This document shows, in pieces, positions 9,082-61,420 of a stretch of DNA of 64,000 bases. The stretch's first letter is position 1. Every line of letters starts with the position of its first letter. The notes under the pieces were generated by a model that did not search any database, was not told the origin of the DNA, and saw only the letters and a list, made by a program, of their open reading frames with translations. The DNA is taken from the NCBI GenBank assembly GCA_965242965.1, contig OZ251518.1:2368001-2432000 (forward strand), written 5' to 3'. The DNA comes from Candidatus Poribacteria bacterium (lineage in GTDB: Bacteria; Poribacteria; WGA-4E; WGA-3G). Both the position numbers and the translations under genes were made by a program.

Positions 9082-9510
9082 TCGTAGCGAGTTTTCGGTG
9101 GACCGGAGCATGGCGAGGGACAGGCCCTCGCCCTACGGAAGGAGAGATTCCAAAGGCCCGTAGCGCGGGGGCCTGTCCCCCGCGATCGCTCGATCACCGG
9201 AGCGGGGGGGCTGTCGCCCGCGATCGTTGCATGGCGAGGGACAGGCCCTCGCCCTACGGTAAAAGGAGCCGTTCTGGATACCGTAGCGCGGGGGCCCTCG
9301 GATGCCATACGCGCATCCGAGCGGGTTTCCCCCGCGATCGTGGCATGGCGAGGGACAGGCCCTCGCCCTACGGTAAAACGAGCCGTTCTGGATACTGTAG
9401 CGCGGGGGCCTGTCCCCCGCGATCGTGGCAGCTTTCCAAAGGCTCGTAGCGCGGGGGCCTGTCCCCCGCGATCTCTCGATCACCGTAGCGCGGGGGCCCT
9501 CGCCCTACGG
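9082..9510. repeat. Cluster of GTAG-type REP-like palindromes (family A)
   Basis: Repeated GTAGCGCGGGGGCCTGTCCCCCGCG and GCGAGGGACAGGCCCTCGCCCTAC units in both orientations. Confidence 0.85.
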
Positions 9511-13353: not shown

Positions 13354-15918
13354 CTACTTCCGAATTACCATCTTCTTGGTTGCGATGAAATCCCCCGCCA
13401 GCAGCGTGTAGAAATAGACACCGCTTGCAACCAGTTCTCCCCGCGCATTGCAGCCATCCCAATACGCGGCGCGTCCCTTTGTCTGATAGATACCCGCAGA
13501 CCTCTGGCCTAATGCCAACGTGCGGACTAACCTCCCATCTGCCGAATGAATGGAGACCGCCACCTCAGCAGGTTTTGCTAATTGATAAGGTATCCACGTT
13601 TCCGGGTTAAACGGATTCGGATAGTTCGCAAGCAGTGCTGTTTTTTTCGGTGTCAAACGTGCGAGGAGCTGTTCCAACTTCGCGATGCCGCGTTGATAAG
13701 TGGGATTGGTAAGGTCGAGTCGTTGCGCCTGCACGAGCCAGGCTTGCACCTCGGTGGCGGTTAGCCGCTGTGCGGCAGGTGCGGCGGGTGCCTCTCCTTC
13801 CTCGGCGGCTTCTTCGTTGGCGGCTCCAAGGTCAATTGCATCCGCAACAATCAAGAGATCAGCGATGGTGACAGCACCATCGCCGTTGACATCGGCGGGG
13901 TGTGCAGTGCCGGTGTGTCCGAAGTTCAAGGCGACGAGGGCCAAATCAAAGTTGTTGACGATGCCATCGCCGCTTACATCAACGTTAAGTAGCGGTTCCG
14001 GTGCAGGCGGCGCGACGATGCCATCGCCGCTTACATCAGCGTTAGGTGGCGGTTCCCATGCGGGCGGCGCAAGTTTCCACAGGAGCACTACGCTACCGGA
14101 AAGCGTCGCAAGTGTGCGGCCATCGGAACTGAAGACACCGCTTCCGGCATACCTCGTATCTCCTTGGAGTGTGTTTTCTTCAAGTTGTCCGGTGGCTACA
14201 TCCCACAAGAAAACGGTTTCGACCTCACTCCATGCGAGGGTGCGGCCATCCGGGCTGAAGACAACGCTACCCCCATGCCCTTGTAGGGTATTTTGGAGTT
14301 TTCCGGTAGTGGCATCCCACAGGCGGATTCCATCTCCACCTGATGCGAGGGTGCGGCCATCCGGACTGAAGACAACCCTATAGACACCGCGGCCCAGCCT
14401 TTGTAGGGTATTTTGGAGTTTTCCGGTAGTGGCATCCCACAGGCGGATCTCTCTATCTTCACCACCCGATGCGAGGGTGCGGCCATCCGGACTGAAGGCA
14501 ACGCTCCAGACATCGCCCCTATGTCCTTGGAGGATATTGAGGGGGTGTCCGGTGATTGCATTCCACAGACGAATGATGGTGTCCTTACTTCCTGATGCGA
14601 GGGTGCGGCCATCCGGACTGAAGACGACGCTGATGACTCTATCCGTATGCCCTTGTAGGGTGTTTTGGAGTTTTCCGGTAGTGGCATCCCACACACGGAC
14701 GGTTTCGTCCCGACTTCCCGATGCGAGGATGCGGCCATCCGGACTGAAGACGACGCTCAAGACATAATCCGTATGTCCTTGTAGGGTATTTTGGAGTTTT
14801 CCGGTAGTGGCATCCCACAGACGGATCTCTCCAACGTGACTTCCCGATGCGAGGGTGCGACCATCCGGGCTGAAGACGACGCTGTCGCCTGTGGCCGTAT
14901 GCCCTTGTAGGATGTTTTTTTCGAGAAGTTTTCCGGTAATGGCATCCCACAGGAGGATTTCTCCATCTCCATCTGATACGAGGGTCCGGCCATCGGGGCT
15001 GAAGACGACGCTAGAGACATAGTCCGTATGTCCTTGTAGGGTGTTGAGGAGTTCGCCGGTAGTGGCATCCCACAGGCGGATTCCATCTCCACCGCCCGAA
15101 CCGCCCGATGCGAGGGTCCGGCCATCGGGGCTGAAGACGACGCTAGAGACATAGTCCGTATGTCCTTGTAGGGTGTTGAGGAGTTCGCCGGTAGTGGCAT
15201 CCCACAGGCGGATTCCATCTCCACCGCCCGAACCGCCCGATGCGAGGGTCCGGCCATCCGGACTGAAGACAACCCCATAAACATTGCCCCAATGTCCTTG
15301 TAGGGTGTTGAGGAGTTCGCCGGTAGTGGCATCCCACAGGCGGAGTTCTCCACCGGCACCACCCGATGCGAGGGTGCGGCCATCCGGACTGAAGACAACC
15401 TTAGAGACACCGCCCCTATGCCTTTGTAGGATATTGAGGGGGTGTCCGGTGATTGCATTCCATAGACGAATGATGGTGTCCTCACTCCCCGATGCGAGGG
15501 TGCGGCCATCCGGACTGAAGACGACGCTAGAGACATAGTCCGTATGCCCTTGTAGGGTGTTGAGGAGTTTTCCGGTAGTGGCATCCCACAGGCGGATCTC
15601 TCCATCTCGACTGCCCGATGCGAGGGTGCGGCCATCCGGACTGAAGACGACGCTAGAGACACTGCCCGTATGCCCGGTGAGCAGTGCCACTTCTTGATAG
15701 GTACCCGTATCGTAGAGCCAAATCCCGATGGAACTCGCAACCGCAAGCAGGGTGTCATCGGGAGAATACGCAATATCTGCGATGCCGCCTTTGCCGAGGC
15801 GCAGGGTTGCGCCTTCGGGCAATCCCCATCGGGCGGAGTCTTCTTGGGCGGTGGCGGGTATCAGTGCCATCGCGGCGTTTAATAGCAGGGTTAAGGTGAA
15901 CAACGTTAATTTCTTCAT
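13354..15918 (-). CDS. Secreted WD40-repeat protein with dockerin-like repeats and a C-terminal sorting/FlgD-like domain
   Basis: Signal peptide; about 14 GH...VVFSPDGRTLASG...LWD repeats; ADVNGDGAVTIADL; LLANYPNPFNPETWIPYQL...SGVYFYTL tail. Confidence 0.9.
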   Translation of the reverse strand: MKKLTLFTLTLLLNAAMALIPATAQEDSARWGLPEGATLRLGKGGIADIAYSPDDTLLAVASSIGIWLYDTGTYQEVALLTGHTGSVSSVVFSPDGRTLASGSRDGEIRLWDATTGKLLNTLQGHTDYVSSVVFSPDGRTLASGSEDTIIRLWNAITGHPLNILQRHRGGVSKVVFSPDGRTLASGGAGGELRLWDATTGELLNTLQGHWGNVYGVVFSPDGRTLASGGSGGGDGIRLWDATTGELLNTLQGHTDYVSSVVFSPDGRTLASGGSGGGDGIRLWDATTGELLNTLQGHTDYVSSVVFSPDGRTLVSDGDGEILLWDAITGKLLEKNILQGHTATGDSVVFSPDGRTLASGSHVGEIRLWDATTGKLQNTLQGHTDYVLSVVFSPDGRILASGSRDETVRVWDATTGKLQNTLQGHTDRVISVVFSPDGRTLASGSKDTIIRLWNAITGHPLNILQGHRGDVWSVAFSPDGRTLASGGEDREIRLWDATTGKLQNTLQRLGRGVYRVVFSPDGRTLASGGDGIRLWDATTGKLQNTLQGHGGSVVFSPDGRTLAWSEVETVFLWDVATGQLEENTLQGDTRYAGSGVFSSDGRTLATLSGSVVLLWKLAPPAWEPPPNADVSGDGIVAPPAPEPLLNVDVSGDGIVNNFDLALVALNFGHTGTAHPADVNGDGAVTIADLLIVADAIDLGAANEEAAEEGEAPAAPAAQRLTATEVQAWLVQAQRLDLTNPTYQRGIAKLEQLLARLTPKKTALLANYPNPFNPETWIPYQLAKPAEVAVSIHSADGRLVRTLALGQRSAGIYQTKGRAAYWDGCNARGELVASGVYFYTLLAGDFIATKKMVIRK

Positions 15919-26473: not shown

Positions 26474-26930
26474 GAAGGTGTTTCATAACTCCGTTATGGA
26501 TGCCTCTTTAGGTCCTTTAGGACCTGCATGTCTATAGAAAAACAGACATGCCACTGTTTTCAAGGTCCGCTAGGACCTTAATCCAGCGGCAGCGAGGGAA
26601 GCAGGCACATTAAGGTCCTACAGACCTTAGGTGCGCTGCGATGCAGGATGCTATAGACATTAAGGTCTTACAGACCTTATTGTTCTCGTAGCGCGGGGGC
26701 CTGTCCCCCGCGATCTCTCAACCTTTGCGGAAAACGCCCGCAACCCAGAGACCACGGATGTTTGCTGCTCAGACCGGTGCATGGCGAGGGACAGGCCCTC
26801 GCCCTACGGTGAAAGCGGCAATCAAGCTTGGCGAGGGACAGGTTTTCCCACCGCCCTACGTGAAGGGAGGCGTTTTTTTACCGTAGCGCGGTAGCCTACC
26901 ACCGCGACGTTGAGCGATTCCGAACCACAG
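26474..26930. mobile_element. Composite MITE copy with a degraded right TIR
   Basis: Left GAAGGTGTTTCATAACTC; flanks TGATTAATC and TGATTAATA; interior has GGWCC palindromes and REP-A. Confidence 0.6.
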
Positions 26931-27786: not shown

Positions 27787-28210
27787 GAAGGAGTTTCATA
27801 AATCTGTGTAGGAGAGACCTCCCGGTCTCGATGCAATAGGGCGGCGCGCCTACCGGGGCTGCGGTGACAGAAAGCCTCCTTCATCGTAGGGCGAGGGCCT
27901 GTCCCTCGCCATCGTCCTCTTCAGGTCCGTAGGACCTGAATGTCTATAGCAGCCCAAACGCAAAAGGCTCTAAGGTCCTTTAGGTCCTTAATAGGTTTTG
28001 CCAGGGCCGCGTGCTTTTTATTAAGGACCTAAAGGACCTTGACAACGTAACGACACGTGTTGCTATAGACATTAAGGACCTAAAGGACCTAAAACGCCCC
28101 CGCTTGACGATGACCAACGCGGGGGACAGGCCCCCGCGCTACGGGAAAATTGAGACCAGGAGGTCTCGCCTACCCGAAGAAATCGAGACCAGGAGGTCTC
28201 TCCTACAGGA
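27787..28210. repeat. REP/GGWCC repeat cluster starting with a MITE-like left TIR
   Basis: GAAGGAGTTTCATAA, then REP-B, REP-A and AAGGTCCTTTAGGTCC/GGACCTAAAGGACC palindromes. Confidence 0.7.
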
Positions 28211-28336
28211 ACATCGCTTGCAGCGAGTAACATCAAAAACAGAAAACTAAACGGTTTCTGTGCGCAGCGATATTCATGTTGATATTCTTTGTGTTTTCAT
28301 GCGATACTGTATTGAACGAAAAAAAGGAGGCAGCAG

Positions 28337-29074: not shown

Positions 29075-29833
29075 ATGGTTTCGCCAAAAGAGATTCAAGC
29101 GGCTTGTGATGACATCGTTCGCGAGTTCGCGCCGCTACAAATTATTCTCTTCGGCTCCTATGCGTATGGCGCGCCGATGGAGGATTCGGATGTCGATCTA
29201 CTCGTCGTGATGGCTATTCCGGAATCGGAGAGACGCGGAAAGGCTGTGGAGATTCGGCAGCGCATTCCGCGTCGATTCCCTATGGATTTGCTCGTCCGTT
29301 CACCGGCAGAGATAGCCTATCGCGTCTCGCACAACGACTGGTTTCTCCGAGAAATCCTTGAGAAGGGGACTGTCCTTTACGATTCGGGTGGTTTTTCCAA
29401 GGGCGCGTTGGAAACCGCTTGCGAGCTGCGCGATAAGAAGGCGGCCGACGTGATGAATCCGTTGACATTAGAGTATGTCGAAAAAGCGGAGGAGAATTAC
29501 GCCAATATCGACTGGCTTCAGCAGGCACCCACGCCGAGGCATAATTCGGTGTGTTTCAACGCGCAGCAATGTATTGAGAAGTATCTGAAGGCGTGGTTGC
29601 AGGAGGCGAACCTCCCTGTTCCGCGAACGCATGATCTGGTAGAATTACTTTATCTGATTGTGCCGTTGCGTCCTGCGTGGCGTGCGTGGGATGCGGATTT
29701 TTCAGCGTTTGTTAAACATGCGGTGGATTTCCTGTATCCGAGGGAATCAGCCACTGCTGCGGATGCGCGTCATGCCGCAAGAATTGCTGCTGAGGTTCGG
29801 CAAGCGGTTCGTGATGGGTTGGGGATTTCTTGA
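29075..29833 (+). CDS. Fused minimal nucleotidyltransferase (MNT) - HEPN protein
   Basis: ILFGSYAYG...DSDVDLLVV, then CFNAQQCIEKYLKA...RTHDL. Confidence 0.8.
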   Translation: MVSPKEIQAACDDIVREFAPLQIILFGSYAYGAPMEDSDVDLLVVMAIPESERRGKAVEIRQRIPRRFPMDLLVRSPAEIAYRVSHNDWFLREILEKGTVLYDSGGFSKGALETACELRDKKAADVMNPLTLEYVEKAEENYANIDWLQQAPTPRHNSVCFNAQQCIEKYLKAWLQEANLPVPRTHDLVELLYLIVPLRPAWRAWDADFSAFVKHAVDFLYPRESATAADARHAARIAAEVRQAVRDGLGIS

Positions 29834-29952: not shown

Positions 29953-29981
29953 TTGCAATTTATTGCAAATTTAGGTATAAT
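29953..29981 (+). promoter_or_regulatory. sigma70 promoter of the vWA-PP2C-kinase operon
   Basis: TTGCAA-17 nt-TATAAT; RBS GGAGG upstream of ATG 30012. Confidence 0.7.
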
Positions 29982-30011: not shown

Positions 30012-30845
30012 ATGGCATATAGCAATGTGCCTATCGGAACATCTAACCCCGGATGCATTGTCATCTTAGTCGACCAGTCGTGGTCGATGAGTGAAGGTTG
30101 GCAAACGGGCACTAAGGCGGAGATTGCAGCGATCGCCGTTAATCGCGTCATTGAGGAGCTGGTCTTGGCCTGCCGCCGCGGAGACGTGATTAGAGAACGG
30201 TGCCATATATCCGTGATTGGTTATGGTGGAGACGTTGAATGTCTCGTAGAAGGGATGATTTCAGAGATGACTTCGGCACTGATTGAAGTCAGGAAGGGCA
30301 AAAAGTTGATACCGGATGGCGCGGGCGGTGTCATTGAAATTGACTACGAAATGCCAATTTGGCTGGAACCACGGGCGGATAACGGCACACCGATGCATAC
30401 CGCTTTTGAGTTCGCCGCCGATGTCGTTGAGCAGTGGTGTGTCAAGTGGCCAAACAGTTTCCCGCCCATTGTTATTAACATTACCGATGGCGCGGCCTCG
30501 CATGCCAATTTAACAGTGAATGCCGCGCAACGAGTGATGCATCTCCAGACATCGGATGGGAACGCCTTAGTCTTCAACCTGCATATAGCTAGCAGTGGCA
30601 ACAGTGCATTTTTGCCGAGTAGCACTGCACAATTTGCGGGTGACTTCTTAGCAGGATTCCTTTTTGAAATTTCTAGCGTTTTGCCGTCCTCTTTACACGC
30701 GTCGGCGGAAAAAGAGGGGATTCTATTGGAAGCAGATGCTCGGTGTTTTCTCTATAATGGCAACGAAACCCAAATGATTAAACTTCTGCAATTTGGATCC
30801 CTGGATTTACCGCAAGTCCACGTTCTTCCTCAACCTTCGGCTTGA
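30012..30845 (+). CDS. vWA domain protein (TerY-like)
   Basis: MIDAS DQSWS, GTPM and INITDG motifs. Confidence 0.85.
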   Translation: MAYSNVPIGTSNPGCIVILVDQSWSMSEGWQTGTKAEIAAIAVNRVIEELVLACRRGDVIRERCHISVIGYGGDVECLVEGMISEMTSALIEVRKGKKLIPDGAGGVIEIDYEMPIWLEPRADNGTPMHTAFEFAADVVEQWCVKWPNSFPPIVINITDGAASHANLTVNAAQRVMHLQTSDGNALVFNLHIASSGNSAFLPSSTAQFAGDFLAGFLFEISSVLPSSLHASAEKEGILLEADARCFLYNGNETQMIKLLQFGSLDLPQVHVLPQPSA

Positions 30846-30849
30846 TGTG

Positions 30850-31725
30850 ATGATAACTTTAACGACGCGCTCTTTCGTGACTCATAAAAAGGCGGAAAGC
30901 CTGGATGATTGTCAAGATGCATCCGCGGTTAATGAAAACACCGCGCGCTACGCCATCGCTGATGGCGCGACCCGGTCATTCTTCCCGAAATGGTGGGCAG
31001 AACTCCTCGTAAGACACTTCTGCGAAACCGAAACGCTGTCTTTGGATAAAGCGAATTGGGCAGAATGGTTACACCCTATTCAACACAAATGGTATCAGAA
31101 GGTATCAGAAAGGGTAAAATCCCGGAACCTATTTTACCTCACTAATTCCTTCAACGCCAATGACCCGGCCACATCTACTTTTATCGGACTTGAATTCGAC
31201 AAACTGAAAGCGGCGTGGCAAGCGATGATTATCGGTGACAGTTGTCTTTTTCACTATACGGACACTGAACTAAAAAGTTATCTCATCGATAATTCCGAAT
31301 TTTTTACGAATCGCCCCGAGGCTCTTGCGAGTTTTGCCGACAAGAACCACTATACCCCTGAATTTATCAGCGGCGGCGTTAAGCCGGGGGACACTTTTAT
31401 CTTAGCGACAGACGCTTTGGCAAAATGGATCCTGGAACATAAGGAATCGGGGAGATTAGACCAGGCACTTGCCCAACTCAACGCGATAAAAACGGAGGAT
31501 GCCTTTTCCACGTTCGTTGATGAAGCGCGCAAGGCTGAAGATATTCGTCTCGTTAATGACGACGTAACGCTTATGCTAATTTCGGTTGAAAAATCTCAAC
31601 GAGAAGTTCCACCGGATCCAGTGTTGCCGCGATTACTTTTTTGGGGGATTCTCGCCACCGGCGCGTTTGGCATTTTCGTTTGGTTTCTCATGCTTCTTTG
31701 GAGATTCCTCAAGAGAGATGATTAA
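30850..31725 (+). CDS. PP2C-like protein phosphatase with a C-terminal TM anchor
   Basis: CQDA, AIADGAT, IGDSCL, LATDAL and DDVTL motifs; hydrophobic C-terminal helix. Confidence 0.85.
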   Translation: MITLTTRSFVTHKKAESLDDCQDASAVNENTARYAIADGATRSFFPKWWAELLVRHFCETETLSLDKANWAEWLHPIQHKWYQKVSERVKSRNLFYLTNSFNANDPATSTFIGLEFDKLKAAWQAMIIGDSCLFHYTDTELKSYLIDNSEFFTNRPEALASFADKNHYTPEFISGGVKPGDTFILATDALAKWILEHKESGRLDQALAQLNAIKTEDAFSTFVDEARKAEDIRLVNDDVTLMLISVEKSQREVPPDPVLPRLLFWGILATGAFGIFVWFLMLLWRFLKRDD

Positions 31726-31740
31726 AAATTGGAGTGATTC

Positions 31741-34476
31741 ATGTCCTGGCCAAGCCGTGCCGATTACACACAGGCCGTACGCGATTATCCTGATCGCAGC
31801 CTGAAAGATACGAAGCTTGAAGGTGGAAAACCTAGGCGGGCGAAAGACAACTTCTTGGCAAGTTACGAAGGCGGGTGGTCCATAGTCTTCCCGATTGAGA
31901 AGGCTTCCAAAACTTTCGCGCTGCGATGTTGGATTAAAGATGTTGTTGATGCTGAAATTCGGTATCAAAAAATATCGGCGCATCTAGCTCAGGAGAATTT
32001 GCCTTACTTTGTAGACTTTGAATATGTCCCCGAAGGCATTTGGGTGAGGGGCACCAAATATCCCATCACTCGCATGGAATGGGCGAACGGGCTCCCGCTG
32101 CGCGCTTTCATTACGCAGAATCTGCAGGAAACCGACGTGTTCAGAACCGTTGCAACCGAATTTCAAAAAATGGTCGCAGCTCTCCATGTTCACGACATCT
32201 CGCACGGTGACCTGCAGGATGGCAACATTCTGCTCAACCGAAACGGGACTCAGGTTGACATCAAGTTGATAGACTACGACAGCGTTTTCGTCCCCGCGCT
32301 CCGTGGTTCTCCCGATAGCGGCATCGTCGGCCTTCCGGAATATCAACATCCGCGAAGAATCGCAGGCGGCGGACAAACCGGCGAAAAGGTGGACTATTTT
32401 TCGGAACTCGTCATCTATCTCTCCTTCCTAAGTCTCGCGGAAAAACCAGAGCTCTGGAATCAGTTTAAGGATAGCACTGGAGACGGCCTCCTCTTTTCAG
32501 CCGATGACTTTAAAAATCCCGACACCTCTGGCGTTTTCAGCGAACTTGGAAAGTTGTCGCCCGAGGTGCAGACACTCGCTGCAACGCTGAAGGATTTTTG
32601 TGCAGAAACAGCCATCGAACGGCTGGCACCGTTAGAGGATGTCTTGCCAGAACCACCGCATGAGAAATGTTATGAACAGGGAACGACTTACCTGCAGAAG
32701 GGACAATACTACGAGGCAGCTGACGAGTTCAGCAAGGCAATCTCCCTCAAACCCGATTTTAAGGAGGCCTATCACGCCCTGGGGTTCACTTACATGATGA
32801 TAGGGAAATTGGATGAGGCGAAAGAGGAAGCCGAAAACGCACTTGCAATTGATTCAGACTATGAACCTGCGCTCGGACTTTTGGACGCTATTCAACCTCG
32901 CCTTGTAACCGTTGATAAAATTCGCACCCTTCGCCGCCAAAACGAAGAGTTGCAAACTCAAATTGACGCACTCCACGCCGAAAATCAGGCGTTGCAAACT
33001 CAGAAGATGGATTTGGGAAAGCAACTGAACGACGCGCGGCAAGACTGGCAAACTGAAACATCGGATATTCGCGGCGAAAAACAGGTGTTGCAGAACGAGA
33101 TTGCTGAACTTCGCACCCAAAACCAAGGGTTGCAAACGGAGAAGGCGGATTTAGGAAAGCAACTGGACGGTGCGCGACAACATTTGGGGACAGAGACTGC
33201 TGAACTTTCCAGAGTTCGCAGCGGAAACCAAAAATTGCAAACCGAGGTCGCCGGACTTCGCAACGAAAACCAAGGGTTGCATGCCGAAACTGCTGAGTTT
33301 CAGACTCAAAACAGCGCGTTGCAGGAAGAAAAAACGGCTTTACAGCAGCAATTGGCCAGAGCGTTCCGACGTTGGATAACCGTTATTGGGGTATTAAGCG
33401 TGATTTGCGTTGCTTGTCTCATCGCGTTCTTCGTCCAATTCAACACCAAGGATGAAGCAGACTCCCAGGTTGGGTTGTTGCAGCAGGAATTGGATGAGAA
33501 GGATACCGAAATCCGCGGACTGGAATCTGCCTTGCAGGAATCGGCGCAAAGGGAAGAACAACTTCGCGGCCAAAACCAGAAGTTGAAAAATCAGAACGCG
33601 GCGTTGCTGAAGGAACTTGACATGGAGCGACAACAAAACCGGACATTGAGGAATCGAATTGCTGCGTTGCAGAAGGAACTTGACGAGCTGCGACCGGCTA
33701 ACGGGACTCCACCGCCATCAAATTCCGTTGATGCCAACATGGCACTGATTCCTGCGGGCCGGTTTCAGATGGGAAGCAAGAATGGTGAATTTGACGAAAA
33801 GCCGGTGCATACCGTCTACGTTGATGCATTTTATATTGACAAATATGAAGTGACAAACGCGCAATATAAGCAATTCGTTGATGCCAATCCTCAATGGAGG
33901 AAGAACCGCATTCCTCGCGCATATCATAACGGCAGTTACCTCAGCGATTGGAATCTGAATGATTATCCCGTCGGAAAAGGCGAGCATCCTGTCACCTATG
34001 TGAGTTGGTATGCAGCGATGGCTTACGCGCAATGGGCTGGCAAACGGCTTCCGACAGAAGCAGAATGGGAGAAAGCGGCGCGCGGTGGAGAGGTTGGACA
34101 GAGATACCCCTGGGGGAACTCTATTGATTCCGGCAAAGCAAACTACGGAACGAATAGTGGTGGGACCACCCGCGTAGGAAACTATCCTGCGAACAACTAT
34201 GGTTTATACGACATGACGGGTAACGTGAGGGAGTGGTGCCTTGATGCCTATCAGGGAGGATTCTATAAAAGTTCGCATCGGCGAAATCCGCTCGCCGGCG
34301 GCACGCTGACCGAGGTTGTGGAGAATTTCGCCAACCTGAAAGGTTCCCGCGTGTTGCGTGGGGGCTCATGGAGTAGTCCAGCCAGGGGGATGCGTGTCGC
34401 CGACCGCCTCGGGTATATGCCAACATACGCGTATCCATACGTCGGTTTCCGATGTGCGAAATCTGTAACCCGCTAA
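31741..34476 (+). CDS. Ser/Thr kinase-like - TPR - coiled coil - TM - coiled coil - FGE-sulfatase (CLec) domain protein
   Basis: HGDLQDGNILL, IDYDS, YQHP; TPRs; heptad repeats; WITVIGVLSVICVACLIAFFV helix; RLPTEAEWEKAARG, GLYDMTGNVREW, RGGSW, GFRC. Confidence 0.85.
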   Translation: MSWPSRADYTQAVRDYPDRSLKDTKLEGGKPRRAKDNFLASYEGGWSIVFPIEKASKTFALRCWIKDVVDAEIRYQKISAHLAQENLPYFVDFEYVPEGIWVRGTKYPITRMEWANGLPLRAFITQNLQETDVFRTVATEFQKMVAALHVHDISHGDLQDGNILLNRNGTQVDIKLIDYDSVFVPALRGSPDSGIVGLPEYQHPRRIAGGGQTGEKVDYFSELVIYLSFLSLAEKPELWNQFKDSTGDGLLFSADDFKNPDTSGVFSELGKLSPEVQTLAATLKDFCAETAIERLAPLEDVLPEPPHEKCYEQGTTYLQKGQYYEAADEFSKAISLKPDFKEAYHALGFTYMMIGKLDEAKEEAENALAIDSDYEPALGLLDAIQPRLVTVDKIRTLRRQNEELQTQIDALHAENQALQTQKMDLGKQLNDARQDWQTETSDIRGEKQVLQNEIAELRTQNQGLQTEKADLGKQLDGARQHLGTETAELSRVRSGNQKLQTEVAGLRNENQGLHAETAEFQTQNSALQEEKTALQQQLARAFRRWITVIGVLSVICVACLIAFFVQFNTKDEADSQVGLLQQELDEKDTEIRGLESALQESAQREEQLRGQNQKLKNQNAALLKELDMERQQNRTLRNRIAALQKELDELRPANGTPPPSNSVDANMALIPAGRFQMGSKNGEFDEKPVHTVYVDAFYIDKYEVTNAQYKQFVDANPQWRKNRIPRAYHNGSYLSDWNLNDYPVGKGEHPVTYVSWYAAMAYAQWAGKRLPTEAEWEKAARGGEVGQRYPWGNSIDSGKANYGTNSGGTTRVGNYPANNYGLYDMTGNVREWCLDAYQGGFYKSSHRRNPLAGGTLTEVVENFANLKGSRVLRGGSWSSPARGMRVADRLGYMPTYAYPYVGFRCAKSVTR

Positions 34477-34494: not shown

Positions 34495-34524
34495 TTGCAA
34501 TCCGTTGCAAATATGTGGTATAAT
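34495..34524 (+). promoter_or_regulatory. sigma70 promoter of the ATPase-nuclease cassettes
   Basis: TTGCAA-18 nt-TATAAT with TG extension. Confidence 0.6.
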
Positions 34525-34574: not shown

Positions 34575-36059
34575 ATGCAAAACGCCAAAGACGCGGGCGG
34601 CACGGTTCGCCTGAAACCCCCAGATGTCCAAATTTCTGTGCAGAATTTTGGGCCGATAACGCATGCGGACATCGATCTGCGTCCGCTGACGGTGTTTGTC
34701 GGGGAGAGCAATACCGGCAAGACTTACCTCGCCGCGCTGATTTATGCCCTGCATCAGCATTTTGAGGGATTTTCACGGTTCCCTCGGGCGTATCTGAATT
34801 TTGCTGACTTAGACTTTCGTTATCGCTATCCTTTGCGACATCACAATCCGGAAATGCAGTCCGAGTTAGACGAAGAGATGCGAGATATCCTTGAAAAGTT
34901 AAACGCGCCTGGGAGGCCGTTCAAGGTATCAGATTTACCACGGCAGTTAAGTGCTGTGTTGCAACGTAGCATTGAAGATGCTGAAAGTCTTGAAGACCAG
35001 GTTAAGCGATACTTCGATCTGGAGTCTGTCGCGGAACTAATCAGGTCTACGAGCGATTTCCCGCACAATGAAATGGCGATTACGTTGGAAGTTCGTGAGG
35101 ACAAGCAGACATGTTGGACCTGTAACATGCGTAACGGTAAGTATGGTACCGCGATAACGGGAGGTGTTGGCAAAAACCTGGTCCTTCTCTCCGCGCAAGA
35201 ATTAGCAGGTCAAGAAATACTAGATTTCGGAGAATTTGCGAGACTTCTGCCTGTTTCTAGGTGGGAAGCGGATGCGTACTATTTGCCTGCCGCGCGGAGC
35301 GGCATCATGCAAAGTCACCGCGTGATTGCGAGATCGCTTGTGAAGAGCGCAACTCGTGTCGGCGTAGACAGGTTTCGCGAGATACCGACGTTTTCGGGGA
35401 TGATAGCGGATTTCCTTGAGGAGATTATCGGCTACGAAGACCGGAATGGTGATTGGGACGAAATGACAAGCATCGCGAACCTGCTAGAGATGGAAGTGTT
35501 ACGGGGGAAGATTGAGGTTAAACATGCAGTGGCAGAGGGATATCCGGAATTCCTCTACCGTCCCAAGGATACAGCGCGCCCACTGCGTATGAGTCAATCG
35601 TCCTCAATGGTATCGGAACTTGCGCCGTTGGTGCTGTTTTTGCGCGGTATCGTTCGTCCGGGCGATTTGCTCATTATTGAAGAGCCTGAATCCCACTTGC
35701 ATCCCGGTGCACAAACCGCGATTGCCCTGACCCTTGCGCGTTTGGTTCGAGCAGGGGTGCGGGTGGTTGTGACGACACACAGTAGTTGGTTTCTCCAGCA
35801 AATTGCGAATCTCATTCGCGAAGGGGAAGTAAATAGGCTGGCAAACGGTATGCCAGCATCGGCGGACTGGTTCTGGAAAGAAGATGTTGGTGCATGGTGG
35901 TTCCACCGTGACAAACCAGTAACGGAAATTCCGTTTGACCTGATTGACGGGATAGAGCCGCGGGATTTCGGGGACGTTGCCGAAATACTCTACAATCGTT
36001 CGGTAACCCTCCAAGAGAAGCTCGTGAATAGGACAGGAGAACGACGTGAAATTGAATGA
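34575..36059 (+). CDS. AAA_15/AAA_21 ABC-type ATPase, cassette 1
   Basis: NFGPI, GESNTGKT, YLPAARSG, SSSMVSELAP, IEEPESHLHP and TTHS motifs. Confidence 0.85.
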   Translation: MQNAKDAGGTVRLKPPDVQISVQNFGPITHADIDLRPLTVFVGESNTGKTYLAALIYALHQHFEGFSRFPRAYLNFADLDFRYRYPLRHHNPEMQSELDEEMRDILEKLNAPGRPFKVSDLPRQLSAVLQRSIEDAESLEDQVKRYFDLESVAELIRSTSDFPHNEMAITLEVREDKQTCWTCNMRNGKYGTAITGGVGKNLVLLSAQELAGQEILDFGEFARLLPVSRWEADAYYLPAARSGIMQSHRVIARSLVKSATRVGVDRFREIPTFSGMIADFLEEIIGYEDRNGDWDEMTSIANLLEMEVLRGKIEVKHAVAEGYPEFLYRPKDTARPLRMSQSSSMVSELAPLVLFLRGIVRPGDLLIIEEPESHLHPGAQTAIALTLARLVRAGVRVVVTTHSSWFLQQIANLIREGEVNRLANGMPASADWFWKEDVGAWWFHRDKPVTEIPFDLIDGIEPRDFGDVAEILYNRSVTLQEKLVNRTGERREIE

Positions 36060-36609
36060 CGTTCTTTCGGAAATCCGAACACGAGTGGATAAAGACAGCC
36101 TGACAGACTCCTGCAGCGGTGAGGGATGTGACGTGGATATGACGGACATACCCGATGAGCGCGTGATAATCCTCGTGGAACATGAGTTTGAGTTGCGCGA
36201 AATGGAGGGTAGACGCTGCGACCGGCTCCTTTTCTTCACTGTTGACAACATCCTCTTCATCGTCCCAATTGAACTCAAAAGTGGGAACATTAGGGCATCA
36301 AGAGGAACCAGGCAGTTGCTTGGTGGTGTAAAACTCGCAAATCATTTAGTTCCAGAGGCGAACGATTTTGAAACCATTTGCCTCCCGGTATTGTTCAGTG
36401 GCAATGTCATTCATCCTGAACAGCACAAAAGGCTCAATCAACGTAGCGGAACTTTCCGAAACCAGTTTTTCAAGGTTAGAACAGCGCGATGCGGTAAGGA
36501 GCGGAGTTTAGCGGATGCTCTGTTCGGCGCGATCCCGAAAACCCCGCAGGAAGTGTTGGAAGAGCGCACGCGTATAAGGGATGTCGTATTGGGTGGACTT
36601 TCTAACTAA
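36046..36609 (+). CDS. Putative PD-(D/E)xK nuclease, cassette 1
   Basis: RCDRLLF...PIELKSG...QL pattern; overlaps the ATPase stop codon. Confidence 0.55.
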   Translation: MKLNDVLSEIRTRVDKDSLTDSCSGEGCDVDMTDIPDERVIILVEHEFELREMEGRRCDRLLFFTVDNILFIVPIELKSGNIRASRGTRQLLGGVKLANHLVPEANDFETICLPVLFSGNVIHPEQHKRLNQRSGTFRNQFFKVRTARCGKERSLADALFGAIPKTPQEVLEERTRIRDVVLGGLSN

Positions 36610-36653
36610 TCAAGGTTCCATTGTGGAATTGAGACGAAAACGGAGAGATTATC

Positions 36654-37853
36654 ATGCAAAACACCAAAAAAACAACGCCCCCGAATATCCACCTCGCGGT
36701 GAAGAATTTTGGGCCGATAGGGAGTGCGGACATCGCGCTGCGTCCACTGACGGTGTTTGTCGGGGAGAGCAATACCGGCAAGACTTACCTCGCCGCGCTG
36801 ATTTATGCCCTGCATCGCACCTTTCAGGTGCCAATGAAACATGGAGACATCGCAGGTGCAAAGTCTAACTTCGGGGATGCGGCGGCGTTTGAAGCCGAAC
36901 TCAAACGGTGTTTTGACATTGACGCTGTCTCGGCGTTAATCCGCGTGACTGACAAGGCTGCCTGCGATGAAATGCAGGTGAGACTCGCGGTCTGCGCGGA
37001 TAATCAGACTCGATGCGTCTTTCAGTTGCGCGCCACCAAACGCGGTATCGCTGTAGAGCACTCTATCGATCTGCCGCCGCGGTCAGAGTTGAAAGAGGCT
37101 GCGTCACTTAACGAACGGAGCCGTGCTTATTTCTTGCCAGCGGGCCGCCGTGGGCTGCTGCAGGCGCATGAGACAGGGGCCGCTGCTGTCAAGACAAACG
37201 GGTTTTCTACCGATTTCCTGCAGCAACTCATCGGTAACCACGAGATAGATAACGGGGGTTCTGCCAAACTGCGCGGCGTTGCCGACTTCCTAAGGGATGA
37301 GGTGCTGCGTGGGGAGATAGAAATGGAGCCGTCGGTGCCGGCAGGCTCTCCTGCATTTTTCTACCGTCCGCAGAAAACCTCGCGCGTGCTGCGGTTAAGT
37401 CACTCGTCATCGCAAGTCTCTGCACTTGCGCCGTTAGCGTTGTTTGTTCGGGCGGTGCTGCGTCCGGGGGATTTGCTCATTATTGAGGAGCCTGAGTCTC
37501 ACTTGCATCCAGGTGCACAAACCGCGATTGCCCTGACCCTGGCGCGTTTGGTTCGAGCGGGGGTGCGGGTGATTGTCACGACACATAGCGATTGGTTTCT
37601 CCAGCAACTCGGCAATCTCATTCTTGAGGGAGAATTAGAGAAACTGGGTGAACCTTACAGCCAGCACGGAGAGTGGTTGCAGCGTGAAGATATTGGCGCA
37701 TGGCTGTTCCAAGAACACGGGACGGTGGAAGAAATTCCGTTTGACATCGTTGGCGGCATAGAGCCTCTGGAATATGGTGTCATTGCCGAGGAACTCTACA
37801 ACCATACGGTGAACCTCCGTAGCCGATACAGAAATGCCACCGGTGAGGAATAG
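36654..37853 (+). CDS. AAA_15/AAA_21 ABC-type ATPase, cassette 2
   Basis: Same motifs as cassette 1, with a shorter central region. Confidence 0.85.
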   Translation: MQNTKKTTPPNIHLAVKNFGPIGSADIALRPLTVFVGESNTGKTYLAALIYALHRTFQVPMKHGDIAGAKSNFGDAAAFEAELKRCFDIDAVSALIRVTDKAACDEMQVRLAVCADNQTRCVFQLRATKRGIAVEHSIDLPPRSELKEAASLNERSRAYFLPAGRRGLLQAHETGAAAVKTNGFSTDFLQQLIGNHEIDNGGSAKLRGVADFLRDEVLRGEIEMEPSVPAGSPAFFYRPQKTSRVLRLSHSSSQVSALAPLALFVRAVLRPGDLLIIEEPESHLHPGAQTAIALTLARLVRAGVRVIVTTHSDWFLQQLGNLILEGELEKLGEPYSQHGEWLQREDIGAWLFQEHGTVEEIPFDIVGGIEPLEYGVIAEELYNHTVNLRSRYRNATGEE

Positions 37854-37859
37854 CGGAAC

Positions 37860-38378
37860 ATGCGTCAGACGAACACGAATGAGGTTCTTCAGCACATCCG
37901 GAGCCGGATAGGCGAAGAAAACCTTATTCAGAGAAATGCGTTCAACAAAGATGGATGTCGGGTGGATTTAACCGGCATCCAACAAGACAGAGTTGTCGTG
38001 GATATGGACAAAGTATTCCCCAGTGGACGAGATAGAGTGAAACTGTGTGATTGTGTCCTCTTCTACTTTGATTCTGACGCAAACTTCGTCACGGTTCCAA
38101 TAGAATGCACAACCGAGAAGAAGGTTGACGTATCAAAGGAATCCGAACAGTTGAAAGCCGGGGCAACCTACGCTGCTGAATTTGCCCCACCAAATGCTAA
38201 AAACTGCATCCCGATTCTTGTCTACAGTGGTGGGCTTCACAAAGTAGAAGTTGATGAACTCAGCAGACGGCGTTCCAAGGTCGGCTTCCGTGGGGGAGCC
38301 CCTGCCGATATTAGAACGACGAAATGTGGAATCCGCAGGAACATAACGACTGTGTTGTCCAAGGCAGGTAGCCTCTAA
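37860..38378 (+). CDS. Putative PD-(D/E)xK-fold protein, cassette 2 (degenerate ExK)
   Basis: LCDCVLF...PIECTT...QL; homologous to 36046-36609. Confidence 0.5.
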   Translation: MRQTNTNEVLQHIRSRIGEENLIQRNAFNKDGCRVDLTGIQQDRVVVDMDKVFPSGRDRVKLCDCVLFYFDSDANFVTVPIECTTEKKVDVSKESEQLKAGATYAAEFAPPNAKNCIPILVYSGGLHKVEVDELSRRRSKVGFRGGAPADIRTTKCGIRRNITTVLSKAGSL

Positions 38379-38548: not shown

Positions 38549-39072
38549 GAGGGTGTTTCATAAATCCGTTGGCGCGCCCTCCCGGTCTCGATGCAATAGG
38601 CAGAAAGCTCCTCCTTCATCGTAGGGCGAGGGCCTGTCCCTCCCCATCGTTCGCGCTACGGAAAAAACGTCTCTTCAGGTCCTTTAGGACCTGAATGTCT
38701 ATAGTCACGTGAGGCTGCGAAGAACGCTAAGGTCCTTTAGGTCCTTAATAGGTTTTGCCATGTCCGCGTGTGTTTTATTAAGGACCTAAAGGACCTTGAC
38801 GTGGGAGCGGCACGTGTTGCTATAGACATGTAGGTCCTAAAGGACCTAAGACGGCATCTTGACGATGGCCAACGCGGGGGACAGGCCCCCGCGCTACGGG
38901 AACATCAAGACCAGAGGGCTCGCCTACCGGATGCATCGAGACTGGTAGGAGGGACATCCTTGCCCCGATAGGCGCATCAACAAAACGCATCGAGACCAGG
39001 AGGTCTCTCCTACGGGAAAATCGCTCGCATCGAGACAGCGCGGGAGTGCCAACGGATTTAGGAAACCCCTTC
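38549..39072. mobile_element. Composite MITE with 19 bp TIRs and an 8 bp TSD
   Basis: GAGGGTGTTTCATAAATCC ... GGATTTAGGAAACCCCTTC; AGATAAGT at 38541-38548 and 39073-39080. Confidence 0.8.
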
Positions 39073-48410: not shown

Positions 48411-48842
48411 GAGGGTGTTTCGTAAATCGCTCAGCGTCGCGGTGACAGGTCCCCGCGCTATTGCCGGTAGGAGAGACCTCCTGGTCTCGATCTTCCGTAG
48501 CGCGGGGGCCTGTCCCCCGCGTTGTCCATCGTCAAGCGGTGGTGTTTTAGGTCCTTTAGGTCCTACATGTCTATAGCAGCACGTGTCGTCCTGTTTTCAA
48601 GGTCCTTTAGGTCCTTAATAAAACACGCGCCGCATGGCAAAACCTATTAAGGACCTAAAGGACCTTAGAGTTCTTCGCGAGCACGCGTGCTATAGACATT
48701 AAGGTCCTACGGACCTAAGAACCGTTTTTTCATCGTCGTGCGGGGCAGAAATCGAGACCGGGAGGTCTCTCCTACCGGGGAAATGGAATCGCTCGGGGTA
48801 TCGCGAAACCATTTTGACAACAACGAGTTAGGAAACACTCTC
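48411..48842. mobile_element. Composite MITE
   Basis: GAGGGTGTTTCGTAAATC ... GAGTTAGGAAACACTCTC; flanks ACTTAAAT and AATTAAAT. Confidence 0.75.
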
Positions 48843-55581: not shown

Positions 55582-56291
55582 CGTAGGAGAGCCCTCCTGG
55601 TCTCGATGCGAGCGGTGTCCCGGTAGGAGAGCCCTCCTGGTCTCGATGCGTTTTGTTGCTGTGCTATCGGGACAAGGATGTCCCTCCTACCGGTCTCGAT
55701 GCGTTCGGCGGTTCCCGTAGGGCGAGGGCCTGTCCCTCGCCGTGCCAAAATTCTCCTTTCACCGTAGGGCGAGGGCCTGTCCCTCGCCATGCACAGGTCT
55801 GAGCAGCAAACATCCGAGGTCTATGAGCTGCAGGCGTTTTTCGCGGAGATCGGCAGATCGCGGGGGACAGGCCCCCGCGCTACGGTAAGAAATAAGAAAT
55901 CGTCCCCGTTCACCGTAGGGCGAGGGCCTGTCCCTCGCCGTGCCTAAGGTCCCTTAGGTCCTTAATATGATTTTTCACGTCTTGTCTCCCGCACATTAAG
56001 GTCCTAACGGACCTTGAAAAGTTTGGCAGACCGGGGTTTCTATAGACATGCAGGTCTTAAAAGACCTGAAGAGGCATCCATTGCAAAAAGCATGCTCGTT
56101 GCGCGGGAGATAATCTTGTAAATCGTGTAAATCCTGTAAATCCTGATTCAGACTATTAAGATTGCGGGGGAAACCCGCTCGGATGCGCGGATGGCATCCG
56201 AGGGCCCCCGCGCTACGAACTACGGACGTTTGAGGCATCGAGACCAGGAGGTCTCTCCTACCGGGAAGGCATCAAGATATGAAACCCCCTC
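55582..56291. repeat. Large mixed REP array ending in a MITE right TIR
   Basis: REP-A/B/C, GGWCC palindromes, AATCCTG tract; TATGAAACCCCCTC ends at 56291. Confidence 0.75.
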
Positions 56292-56388
56292 ACTTAACTG
56301 TGGCGGAGCCCTTGACGATGCACGGGTGGCAGGAGCACGCGGTAAAATCAATACGCATCCTTTTTGTAGATATAGGAGGATTTCCTCA

Positions 56389-56994
56389 ATGCCGTATAGC
56401 AATTTTACGTTAGAAAAAGTGCGGAAAACGTTTCATTTAGAGGCGTTTGAAGAGGCGGACATCTCCTCTGACATCGAACCGGTAAGTCCAAGCGCAGAAC
56501 TTACCAAGGCATTGTCGCGCAATGTGCCGGTAGCGAAAGCCATCAACACTGAGAAGGCGAAATCGGAAATGATTGTCGCTAATGTTCTCCTTGAACTTCG
56601 CGAGCACTTTGAGCGGCGTATCAGTCTTTTTTCAGGTATCGATTTCAACGTTGACGACAAGACAGAATTAACCGGCGTGTGCGACTTCCTCGTCAGTCTG
56701 TCTCCGGTGCAATTTCATTTAGAGGCACCCATCATCATTCTTGTAGAGGCGAAGAAGGATGATCTGACGGTTGGATTCGGGCAGTGTGTCGCGGAGATGG
56801 TGGCCGCCCAACGCTTTAATGCCGAGAGAGGCAATGACATCCGTTGCGTTTATGGTGCTGCCACATCAGGAATAGTGTGGCAATTCCTCAAATTGGAGGG
56901 ACAAGCACTCTATATTGATAGCACCGTGTATGTAATCGGGCAGTGCGGCAAAATCCTCGGCATCCTCGCCAGTATGGTGGAACAAAAGGCATGA
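56389..56994 (+). CDS. PD-(D/E)xK (HSDR_N-like) protein, paralog 1 (201 aa)
   Basis: YSNFTL, TEKAKSE, GVCDFL, VEAKK and GQCVAEMVAAQRFN motifs; RBS AGGAGG. Confidence 0.7.
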   Translation: MPYSNFTLEKVRKTFHLEAFEEADISSDIEPVSPSAELTKALSRNVPVAKAINTEKAKSEMIVANVLLELREHFERRISLFSGIDFNVDDKTELTGVCDFLVSLSPVQFHLEAPIIILVEAKKDDLTVGFGQCVAEMVAAQRFNAERGNDIRCVYGAATSGIVWQFLKLEGQALYIDSTVYVIGQCGKILGILASMVEQKA

Positions 56995-57009
56995 ACCGGA
57001 GATGAACAG

Positions 57010-57615
57010 ATGGCATACAGCAACTTCACCCTAGATTCGGTGGAAGCAGCGTTTCAGTTAGAAGTCGTTGAACGCGCGGGTATCTTTTCTGGGATAGAAC
57101 CGGTGGCACCGAGCCTCTATCTATCAACAGGCTTAGCCAAAAAGGTTGCACTGGCCACCGCGATAGGCACTGAGAAAGCGCGTTCGGAACTCATTGTTGC
57201 CGACATTCTCGTTGAACTGCGGGAACATTTCGAGTTTCGCATTAGCTTTTTTTCGGGGATTGACTTCAACGTTGATGCAGAAAACGAACTCACCGGTGTC
57301 TGCGATTTCTTAGTGAGTCTATCCCCTAGACAATCGCTTTTAAAGGCACCTATCATCGCGCTGGTGGAAGCAAAGAACGTTGACGTGAAACAAGGACGAG
57401 GACAGTGTGTGGCGGAGATGATTGCCGCCCAACGCTTTAACGCCGACAAAGGCAATGACATCCCCCGCATTTACGGTGCATCGACTACGGGAACGGAGTG
57501 GCAGTTCCTGAAATTAGAGGAGAAGTGCCTGCACCTAGATATGGATACCTACCCTATCCAGCGGTGCGATGCAATCCTCGGCATCCTCGCCAGTATGGTG
57601 GAACAAAAAGCATGA
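57010..57615 (+). CDS. PD-(D/E)xK (HSDR_N-like) protein, paralog 2 (201 aa)
   Basis: Same motifs; VEAKN. Confidence 0.7.
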   Translation: MAYSNFTLDSVEAAFQLEVVERAGIFSGIEPVAPSLYLSTGLAKKVALATAIGTEKARSELIVADILVELREHFEFRISFFSGIDFNVDAENELTGVCDFLVSLSPRQSLLKAPIIALVEAKNVDVKQGRGQCVAEMIAAQRFNADKGNDIPRIYGASTTGTEWQFLKLEEKCLHLDMDTYPIQRCDAILGILASMVEQKA

Positions 57616-57630
57616 ACGGGAGATAAGCCG

Positions 57631-58236
57631 ATGGAGTCCAGCAACTTCACCCTAGAAATAGCGCGGAAGAGGTTTCAACTTGAAGAAACTCAATCTATCG
57701 GCATCTTCGCCGACATAGAGCCGGTGACACCGCGTGCGCACTTTATCACCGAGTTCGCGGATAGAGTGTCAATCGCCGCCGCTATAAACACCGAGAAGGC
57801 AAAATCGGAACTCCTTGTCGCCGAAGTGCTGTTTGAGCTCCGCGCGCACTGCACCCGGCAGATAAGTTTTTTTTCGGGGATTGACTTCAACGTGAATGCC
57901 GATGATGAACTCACGGGTGTATGCGACTTTCTCGTGAGTCTGTCGCCAAATCAATTTGATTTAGAAGCACCTGTCATCATTCTCGTAGAGGCAAAGCGGG
58001 ATGCACCGGCATTCGGCTTGGGGCAGTGTGTGGCGGAGATGATTGCCGCTCAACGCTTTAATACCGACAAAGGCAATGACATCCCCCGCATTTACGGTGT
58101 CTCCACCACCGGCACCGAGTGGCTATTCCTCAAATTAGAGGAACGGCACCTGCAAATTGATCGGGATATCTACCACATCAAGCAGTGCGGCGCAATCCTC
58201 GGCATCCTCGCCTGCATGGTGGAACAAAAAGCGTGA
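57631..58236 (+). CDS. PD-(D/E)xK (HSDR_N-like) protein, paralog 3 (201 aa)
   Basis: Same motifs; VEAKR. Confidence 0.7.
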   Translation: MESSNFTLEIARKRFQLEETQSIGIFADIEPVTPRAHFITEFADRVSIAAAINTEKAKSELLVAEVLFELRAHCTRQISFFSGIDFNVNADDELTGVCDFLVSLSPNQFDLEAPVIILVEAKRDAPAFGLGQCVAEMIAAQRFNTDKGNDIPRIYGVSTTGTEWLFLKLEERHLQIDRDIYHIKQCGAILGILACMVEQKA

Positions 58237-58270
58237 CTCAAATGCCCCTGGAACAGTGAGGTGATTTCAG

Positions 58271-61158: not shown

Positions 61159-61420
61159 CGCGAGGGCCTGTCCCTCGCGAACTCTCAGAGGTATTAAACC
61201 GTCCGCGGCCCGTAGCGCGAGGGCCTGTCCCTCGCGAACTCTCAGAGGTATCAAATCGTCCTCGGCTCATAGCGCGAGGGCCTGTCCCTCGCGAGCTCTC
61301 AGAGGTATAAAATCGTCCGCGGCCCGTAGCGCGAGGGCCTGTCCCTCGCGAGCTCTCAGAGGTATAAAATCGTCCGTGGCCCGTAGCGCGAGGGCCTGTC
61401 CCTCGCGAACTCTCAAAGGA
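61108..61420. repeat. ~57 bp tandem array of REP-A plus the pyrC 3' end
   Basis: CGGCCCGTAGCGCGAGGGCCTGTCCCTCGCGA(A/G)CTCTCAGAGGTAT... repeated about 5 times. Confidence 0.85.

Follow-up and report, generated by a model that had tools for sequence, protein, structure and literature searches.

How could a bacterial phosphorylation module of the TerY-P type be built to face the outside of the cell, and what would it read there? The question is raised by a locus at 30012-34476 in a 64,000-nucleotide stretch of DNA from a Candidatus Poribacteria bacterium (assembly GCA_965242965.1, contig OZ251518.1, positions 2,368,001 to 2,432,000 of the forward strand), referred to here as the window. A vWA protein, a PP2C phosphatase and a kinase are encoded there in a compact operon on the plus strand, and both enzymes carry a hydrophobic segment. 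The TerY-P triad was reportedly described by Anantharaman, Iyer and Aravind in 2012, and is said to be a defence system of Gao et al. 2020; we know of no account of how TerY-P systems sense anything. Our reading, to which we give a probability of roughly 0.6, is that the locus is a membrane-embedded TerY-P triad acting as an outside-in Ser/Thr switch, analogous to PpkA/PppA/TagR. The triad probably reports events at the cell envelope.

The list of open reading frames (ORFs) places the three genes as follows:

30012-30845, plus strand: vWA gene, 277 residues, TerY-like, soluble
30850-31725, plus strand: PP2C gene, 291 residues from the ATG at 30850; the longest frame starts at a TTG at 30793
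31741-34476, plus strand: kinase gene, 911 residues

The phosphatase likely starts at an in-frame GTG (30847) or ATG (30850), 2-5 nucleotides past the vWA stop, and 15 nucleotides separate its own stop from the kinase ATG. A GGGAGGA ribosome-binding site lies just 5' of the ATG at 30012, preceded by one further element:

29953..29981, plus strand: promoter-like site, TTGCAA, 17 nucleotides, TATAAT, about 30 nucleotides 5' of the vWA start

This site is a consensus match only, in a region that holds 6 such sites where 8.6 are expected in shuffles.

All three proteins match the PADLOC models for TerY-P, so that the TerY-P-type triad recognized by the initial annotation holds. The vWA protein matches TerY at 8.7e-54 over model positions 1-270 of 277 (Pfam VWA_2, 4.4e-7), the phosphatase matches PP2C at 2.4e-24 over positions 11-241 of 242, and the kinase matches STK_OB at 3.6e-61, only over positions 1-297 of 562 (Pfam Pkinase, 5.8e-10). 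Pfam gives no match to the phosphatase at 0.01, and a relaxed search yields only SpoIIE at 0.016. The AlphaFold2 model of the phosphatase is confident (pLDDT 95.1), and its top Foldseek matches in the PDB are PppA (6jkv, 5.4e-12) and PstP (1txo, 6.1e-12), with probability 1.00. Solved eukaryote-type kinases match the kinase domain remotely, the best at 5.8e-5. A scan of species-representative genomes found 76 homologous loci, 26 of them Poribacteria by record title, or 77 and 27 with the window. With a vWA relative in 70 of these 77 and a PP2C in 72, the arrangement can hardly be due to chance. Of the 28 loci drawn, counting the window, 25 keep the order vWA-PP2C-kinase; the three exceptions (L010, L018 and L025) are loci where the choice of non-overlapping ORFs dropped the PP2C frame.

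Judged by their conserved catalytic and metal-binding residues, all three proteins look functional. The metal-ion-dependent adhesion site (MIDAS) motif of the vWA protein is intact (D21-x-S23-x-S25, T126, D159) and is kept in 68-70 of 70 homologues. Across an alignment of 40 phosphatases the acidic metal-site motifs D23, D38-G39, G129-D130, D188 and D237-D238 are invariant. In the kinase, D157 is conserved in 76 of 77 sequences and N162 and D178 in all 77, with DYD as the equivalent of DFG. Residue 62 falls in a column that we read, from the alignment, as the position of the beta3 lysine; it is Arg in 70 of 77 sequences, this copy among them, and Lys in the other seven. Arg62 is therefore a family trait and not a defect of this copy, although it is unusual for an active protein kinase.

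Past its catalytic domain, the kinase departs from the TerY-P kinases already described, which according to the accessible text of PMC11090510 end in an OB fold (Gao-type) or a zinc ribbon (CoCoNuT-type). Here STK_OB positions 298-562 are unmatched and the tail is neither an OB fold nor a zinc ribbon. The protein is laid out as follows:

31741..32655, plus strand: TerY-P-type kinase domain, residues 1-305, with HGD catalytic loop, N162 and DYD
32668..32877, plus strand: two TPR repeats, residues 310-379 (Pfam TPR_2 3e-11, TPR_1 1e-8)
32896..33360, plus strand: first coiled-coil stalk, residues 386-540, heptad z 6.5, read as cytoplasmic
33364..33447, plus strand: kinase transmembrane segment, about residues 541-570, Kyte-Doolittle score (KD19) 2.88
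33454..33690, plus strand: outer coiled-coil stalk, residues 572-650, heptad z 3.7
33736..34461, plus strand: FGE-sulfatase-fold (C-type-lectin-like) domain, residues 666-907, Pfam FGE-sulfatase 1e-62

Heptad periodicity, scored against shuffles, is absent from the kinase, TPR and FGE-like parts (z -0.3 to 0.8). Internal repeats of about 46-49 residues make up the first stalk; in the DNA they appear as repeat family D20 at 32930-33341. An AlphaFold2 model of the full-length kinase is poor (mean pLDDT 54.7, pTM 0.38, 38-row alignment), with only the TPR part modelled well (pLDDT above 90), and its secondary structure alone was used, with caution; it places low-confidence helices at residues 375-485, 495-563 and 572-649. 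A homodimer prediction for residues 375-660 scored 0.35 against a mark of 0.42, which counts neither for nor against binding. The initial annotation had described an operon of vWA protein, PP2C with a transmembrane segment, and kinase with TPR, coiled coil, transmembrane segment, coiled coil and FGE-sulfatase domain, and the ORFs, Pfam matches, hydropathy and heptads bear it out at 30012-34476. The kinase is predicted to cross the membrane once, and in place of the usual OB tail it has TPR repeats, a coiled coil, the membrane segment, a second coiled coil and the FGE-fold domain.

Is the hydrophobic segment of the kinase a true membrane anchor? A search with the kinase domain returned 550 proteins of 501-1595 residues at E <= 1e-3, among them a protein from a metagenome-assembled genome (MAG) of Candidatus Poribacteria. 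In the best 120 of these 550, one transmembrane segment is found in 109, with an FGE-like domain in 49 and without in 60; 11 have none. The block around the segment is only 23% identical among distant homologues, yet the segment is present in 109 of 120, and this conservation of hydrophobicity while the sequence diverges supports anchoring. The flanks carry a net charge of +4 on the N-terminal side and -2 on the C-terminal side, and among the 109 anchored homologues the kinase side has the higher net charge in 74, the lower in 20 and an equal one in 15. From the sequence we infer an N-in/C-out topology, in which the TPR repeats are read as cytoplasmic and the FGE-like domain as extracytoplasmic. 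The phosphatase has a hydrophobic stretch of its own near its C-terminus:

31633..31710, plus strand: PP2C hydrophobic C-terminal segment, LLFWGILATGAFGIFVWFLMLLW, followed by only 7 residues

With a KD19 of 2.08 and a position inside a modelled helix (residues 258-288, pLDDT about 87-91), this segment is read, by its sequence features, as a tail anchor, which supports the membrane-anchored PP2C of the initial annotation. The Kyte-Doolittle scan covered nine proteins, and apart from the kinase and the phosphatase none of them reaches a KD19 of 1.6; the vWA protein has no hydrophobic segment.

Anchoring of both enzymes is common in Poribacteria-type genomes. Among the 27 Poribacteria-type loci both are anchored in 22, the kinase only in 3, the phosphatase only in 1 and neither in 1, and an equivalent of the PP2C C-terminal segment is present in 23 of the 27. 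Because the loci are kin, these counts are not independent. A cleaner control for paired anchoring than the locus counts is provided by genome G085 (L093, G085:C72:58000-77000; L023), where two complete triads lie 8 kb apart: a soluble one, with a PP2C of 268 residues and a kinase of 673 residues bearing an FGE-like domain, and an anchored one, with a PP2C of 319 residues and a kinase of 804 residues that also ends in an FGE-like domain. Soluble kinases occur elsewhere as well. Of the 11 homologues without a membrane segment, nine are proteins of 595-596 residues with an S1 domain (PF00575; this and the WD40-type labels below come from the precomputed Pfam column of the database), and two (P0104 and P0114) are fusions of kinase, TPR and vWA. 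The S1/OB-tailed kinases of 595-596 residues occur in the same lineage as the membrane form; no S1/OB-tailed Poribacteria-type kinase (P0064 class) was found in the five loci from a metagenome scan. Since kinase-TPR-vWA fusions exist, one of them inside a triad operon, a functional link between kinase and vWA protein is supported. That operon, in a genome of the same genus (L092, G066:C1:2288000-2300000), encodes a vWA protein, a soluble kinase-TPR-vWA protein of 667 residues, an anchored PP2C and an anchored kinase-FGE protein of 1009 residues. We find no conserved fourth gene of the triad; a TPR-only ORF is present in 8 of the 27 other loci listed, seldom adjacent.

Beyond the close homologues, a library clustered at 50% identity holds 3142 kinase-domain representatives at E <= 1e-30. 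In 78 of the best 150 of these the kinase domain is followed by a hydrophobic segment, and seven of the 150 carry an FGE-like domain, four with a membrane segment and three without. Many TerY-P switches may therefore read the envelope and not the cytoplasm. The kinase is present in 30 of the 176 genomes of the window's phylum (26 of 133 of good quality, 7 of 31 genera) and is single-copy in the source genome. Our literature searches turned up no description of a membrane-anchored TerY-P triad, though Anantharaman 2012 and Gao 2020 may mention such forms; the anchored triad is a widespread variant that is undescribed within the literature searched.

The part of the kinase past the membrane is not fixed. 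Swapping of C-terminal domains among homologous kinases, for which the initial annotation had suggested a survey, turns out to be real and frequent: in the 109 anchored homologues the module past the membrane segment is FGE-like in 49, TPR in 54 and of another kind in 6, one of these with WD40-type families. A FastTree phylogeny built from the kinase domains of these 120 proteins puts the window kinase within a clade of 33 kinases of the FGE type (support 99), whose sister group is the kinase-vWA fusions. In the rest of the tree the FGE and TPR types interleave, with 14 changes by parsimony, at least 9 of which are forced by well-supported branches. Some kinases are plain mosaics. P0047 and P0044, as well as P0055 and P0058, are 96-100% identical over their first 250-300 residues, and in the ectodomain their identity falls to 10-20%; across the sets P0047/P0044/P0052, P0055/P0058, P0061/P0084 and P0048/P0109, kinase domains are 88-100% and sensor halves 10-25% identical. 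The breakpoints are sharp and fall after about residue 300, beyond which one member has an FGE sensor half and its counterpart a TPR one. Such pairs could be products of gene conversion between paralogues or of cassette exchange. By these sequence comparisons the module past the membrane behaves as an exchangeable sensor, and in this one phylum the sensor half would be a swappable extracytoplasmic module. Natural controls are at hand in the genome that has both a soluble and an anchored triad, and in the identical kinases that bear either an FGE or a TPR ectodomain.

What, then, is the C-terminal domain of the kinase? Among solved structures its closest relative is SUMF2/pFGE (3.8e-31), the formylglycine-generating enzymes (FGEs) in the PDB match at about 1e-30, and PorK/GldK (4.7e-24) and the Treponema variable protein 2y3c (5.8e-16) match as well. 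A Pfam FGE-sulfatase match as strong as 1e-62 could suggest an active FGE that matures sulfatases under control of the kinase. When the domain is aligned with the bacterial FGEs 6s07 and 6muj, however, the LCHxSYC-type stretch, in which those enzymes hold both active-site cysteines, gives way to one that is 3 residues shorter and has no cysteine, and the closest solved relative, SUMF2, is itself a cysteine-less paralogue; we give the enzyme hardly any credence, and it was rejected for want of an active-site cysteine pair. Because both cysteines are missing, the domain is, as far as its sequence tells, non-catalytic as an FGE, and a ligand-binding role is therefore plausible. The source genome contains at least 40 FGE-sulfatase-fold matches (40 candidates were scored), for example at C1:3998465-4000894 and C1:2677934-2680450, so that the fold is a common module in this organism. 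Several ORFs of the source genome carry two or three tandem FGE copies, one such frame having 1287 residues.

The same fold is used by some variable proteins of diversity-generating retroelements (DGRs), 2y3c being TvpA of Treponema denticola, and the initial annotation had proposed the C-terminal region as a DGR target. The RGGSW...GFRC string on which it remarked is present. The proposal itself fails: RVT_1 has no match in the source genome (5.70 Mb, 2 contigs, 94.66% complete), in a search in which control genomes were positive, and a DNA search of the same genome with 34100-34476 finds no template-like repeat, only paralogous coding sequence. Apart from the query itself, the closest sequence is 74% identical over 201 nucleotides and lies inside a paralogous ORF of three domains, with a further 62 nucleotides at 87%; nothing near-identical to about 34350-34460, where a template had been expected to match, is found in the genome. 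Nor is the tail hypervariable: in the 20 closest homologues, identity over residues 866-911 is 84%, similar to the 87% of the domain as a whole. Lacking a reverse transcriptase, a template repeat and a hypervariable tail, the DGR target was set aside as highly improbable.

Several known systems resemble the triad. With TerY-P it shares the three families, their order, the tight operon and the conserved kinase, PP2C and MIDAS motifs; it differs in the anchored PP2C and in a kinase tail of TPR, coiled coil, membrane segment, coiled coil and FGE-like domain in place of the OB fold or zinc ribbon of the kinases covered in the accessible text on TerY-P. TerY-P is presented as a stand-alone anti-phage system in a commentary on Gao et al. 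(PMC7699616) and in PMC11090510. The nearest logic on record is that of PpkA/PppA/TagR, the threonine phosphorylation pathway of the H1 type VI secretion system (T6SS) of P. aeruginosa. According to the excerpted text of PMC13713981, residues 127-359 of TagR are FGE-sulfatase-like, TagR is proposed to dimerise PpkA after membrane damage, and PppA is the antagonist. As far as that text goes, the pathway has a membrane Ser/Thr kinase activated by dimerisation, a PP2C antagonist and a periplasmic FGE-fold module, to which the parts proposed here would correspond, and PppA is the top structural match of the window phosphatase. In that system, however, TagR is a separate protein and PpkA a Hanks kinase of the standard type, with an FHA protein as target and type VI secretion as output, whereas here a TerY-P-type kinase carries the FGE-like domain in its own chain and the vWA protein is cytoplasmic; the Pfam scan of the window proteins finds no T6SS genes near the triad. 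The periplasmic domain of PpkA is a vWA domain. By analogy, the triad may connect TerY-P to the membrane-damage logic of PpkA/PppA/TagR. Two further systems resemble parts of the locus. The catalytic domain of PstP from Mycobacterium tuberculosis is the second-best structural match of the phosphatase (1txo, 6.1e-12). PstP is membrane-anchored and is encoded beside its receptor kinase. PknB/PstP differs in its PASTA sensor domains, the lack of a vWA partner and an essential role in growth control. 'Proteo1' Hanks-type kinases with a C-terminal membrane segment and FGE-sulfatase domain appear in the accessible part of a Ser/Thr kinase atlas preprint (10.1101/2025.01.12.632604), so that the kinase-membrane segment-FGE-sulfatase layout is already on record there, but in a different kinase family; vWA, PP2C and TerY do not occur in that text.

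How might such a switch work? The parts are observed, and the steps that join them are our proposal. The FGE-like domain would stand on a stalk of about 80 residues outside the cytoplasmic membrane, some 11-12 nm away if the stalk is a straight helix. A bound ligand or an altered envelope would change how the coiled-coil stalks pair, and the new pairing would activate the cytoplasmic kinase by trans-autophosphorylation. The kinase would then phosphorylate a cytoplasmic target, the operon's own vWA protein being the likeliest, and the co-anchored PP2C would reset the switch at the membrane. The likeliest output would be stress response or phage defence, as for other TerY-P systems; this is the weakest step, a defence role being suggested by the family name and the literature.

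Several observations weigh against this outside-in switch, and part of them touch the membrane arrangement. The topology is a prediction from hydropathy and charge bias, and the full-length model is silent on how the domains are arranged. By a plain count of Lys and Arg the kinase side is higher in only 51 of the 109 anchored homologues, lower in 36 and tied in 22. Outside the Poribacteria type the two anchors are loosely linked: in the other 50 loci both enzymes are anchored in 3, the kinase only in 6, the phosphatase only in 4 and neither in 32, with 5 loci incomplete. Kinase-FGE fusions without a membrane segment exist, namely L049, the 673-residue kinase of G085 (L023) and three of the seven FGE-bearing representatives, and therefore the FGE-like domain need not be outside the cell; they warn that it is a general binding module, not one periplasmic by nature. 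In L049, from an Akkermansia muciniphila MAG, the kinase is joined through a proline-rich linker to the FGE-like domain within a vWA-PP2C-kinase triad, and its maximum KD19 is 1.21. The remaining points concern defence. Not one of 50,697 phage records and only two of 72,556 plasmid records match the kinase, and in several genomes, this one included, the triad sits in the same chromosomal neighbourhood, between DUF6785/PPS_PS and a Gfo/Idh/MocA pair with varying genes in between, which fits resident signalling as well as it fits defence.

It is indeed possible, if on balance doubtful, that the triad is not immune at all and is a resident Ser/Thr module for envelope or host sensing, like the receptor kinase/PP2C pairs that control the cell envelope, in which case the FGE-like and TPR ectodomains would read glycans or proteins of the sponge host or the cell wall. 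The shared flanks and the near absence from phage and plasmid records speak for it, as do the wealth of FGE folds in the source genome, which marks a general extracytoplasmic module of the lineage, and the presence of the DNA in sponge metagenome runs. Yet all three genes match models built from defence TerY-P genes, the kinase is patchy in its phylum, exchange of the sensor half has left sharp mosaic breaks, a pattern commoner in conflict systems, and the neighbours here are of defence type (an MNT-HEPN fusion and two PD-T4-4_A-like ATPases). Taking the opposite side, the triad could be a surface-facing immune receptor, whose lectin-like or TPR ectodomain, carried on a coiled-coil stalk, detects phage adsorption or a breach of the envelope from beyond the cytoplasmic membrane and triggers a cytoplasmic response before or during genome entry. 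We consider this rather unlikely; if it were true, the exchange of ectodomains on near-identical kinases would be the trace of a recognition arms race.

A membrane-embedded switch also raises the question of what lies downstream, and the initial annotation had suggested that the triad feeds adjacent ATPase-nuclease effectors. The neighbouring genes concerned, together with one 5' of the triad, are:

29075..29833, plus strand: nucleotidyltransferase-HEPN fusion (Pfam HEPN 1.2e-14, NTP_transf_2 1.1e-9), not part of the triad
34575-36059 with 36046-36609, plus strand: ATPase and small-protein pair 1, AAA_15/AAA_21
36654-37853 with 37860-38378, plus strand: ATPase and small-protein pair 2, AAA_15/AAA_21, paralogous to pair 1

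In favour of the triad as a sensor for the four genes at 34575-38378 are their strand and closeness, with 98 nucleotides between the kinase stop and the first ATPase start, and the resemblance of the ATPases to PD-T4-4_A (1.3e-34 and 1.5e-36), AriA and GajA-type defence ATPases. The 76 other triad loci contain not one of the four genes, however, and in related genomes the interval from the triad to the Gfo/Idh/MocA pair is occupied by other genes. Between the kinase and the first ATPase, at 34495-34524, there is a promoter-like site with an extended -10, itself a consensus match only. The small partners (172-187 residues) match no nuclease nor any other family: searches of Pfam, PADLOC (E 0.01) and NCBIfam give no match, and a protein atlas gives unnamed clusters only. 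The suggested link to effectors thus finds no echo in the other loci and no family behind the word nuclease, and we hold it to be improbable. As the neighbours are not conserved while the flanks are shared, we take the triad to be self-contained.

The two ATPase genes are 71% identical in DNA over 300 nucleotides, and their small partners are 28% identical to each other (E 9e-16). A D...ExK-like string can be seen by eye in one small partner and not in its paralogue; we do not count it as evidence. The fusion at 29075-29833, with an MNT-like and a HEPN part in a single protein, resembles a fused toxin-antitoxin pair, and such a gene stands beside the triad in only one other locus of the 76. 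On the minus strand, an ORF at 26945-27691 matches the Pfam family PPS_PS of phosphopantothenate/pantothenate synthetases (3.9e-63) and is syntenic with the triad in several relatives. The PPS_PS family is mainly archaeal, yet this genome is bacterial.

Direct repeats of about 420 nucleotides, composite in make-up, at 27830-28230 and 38560-39030 bracket a stretch of 10.3 kb (28.2-38.5 kb) with a TPR gene, the MNT-HEPN gene, the triad and the two ATPase pairs. Their aligned parts are mostly identical, with two insertions, and related inverted copies lie at 48495-48633. The GC content is 0.48-0.53 inside the bracketed stretch against about 0.55 outside. Elsewhere in the window, REP-like GC-rich palindromes of the CGTAGCGCGGGGGCCTGTCCCCCGCG type crowd the intergenic regions from 9088 to 63269 (for example at 9148-9474, 26676-26810, 55705-55943 and 61143-61411), one family having 29 copies of a 41-nucleotide unit. 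Tandem arrays with periods of 57 and 150 nucleotides are present at 61.1-61.4 kb and 62.5-63.3 kb. Repeats are found within coding sequence too, as about 12 copies of a unit of 126-132 nucleotides at 14.1-15.8 kb (14100-15800) and as four copies of a unit of 621-640 nucleotides at 56386-58876.

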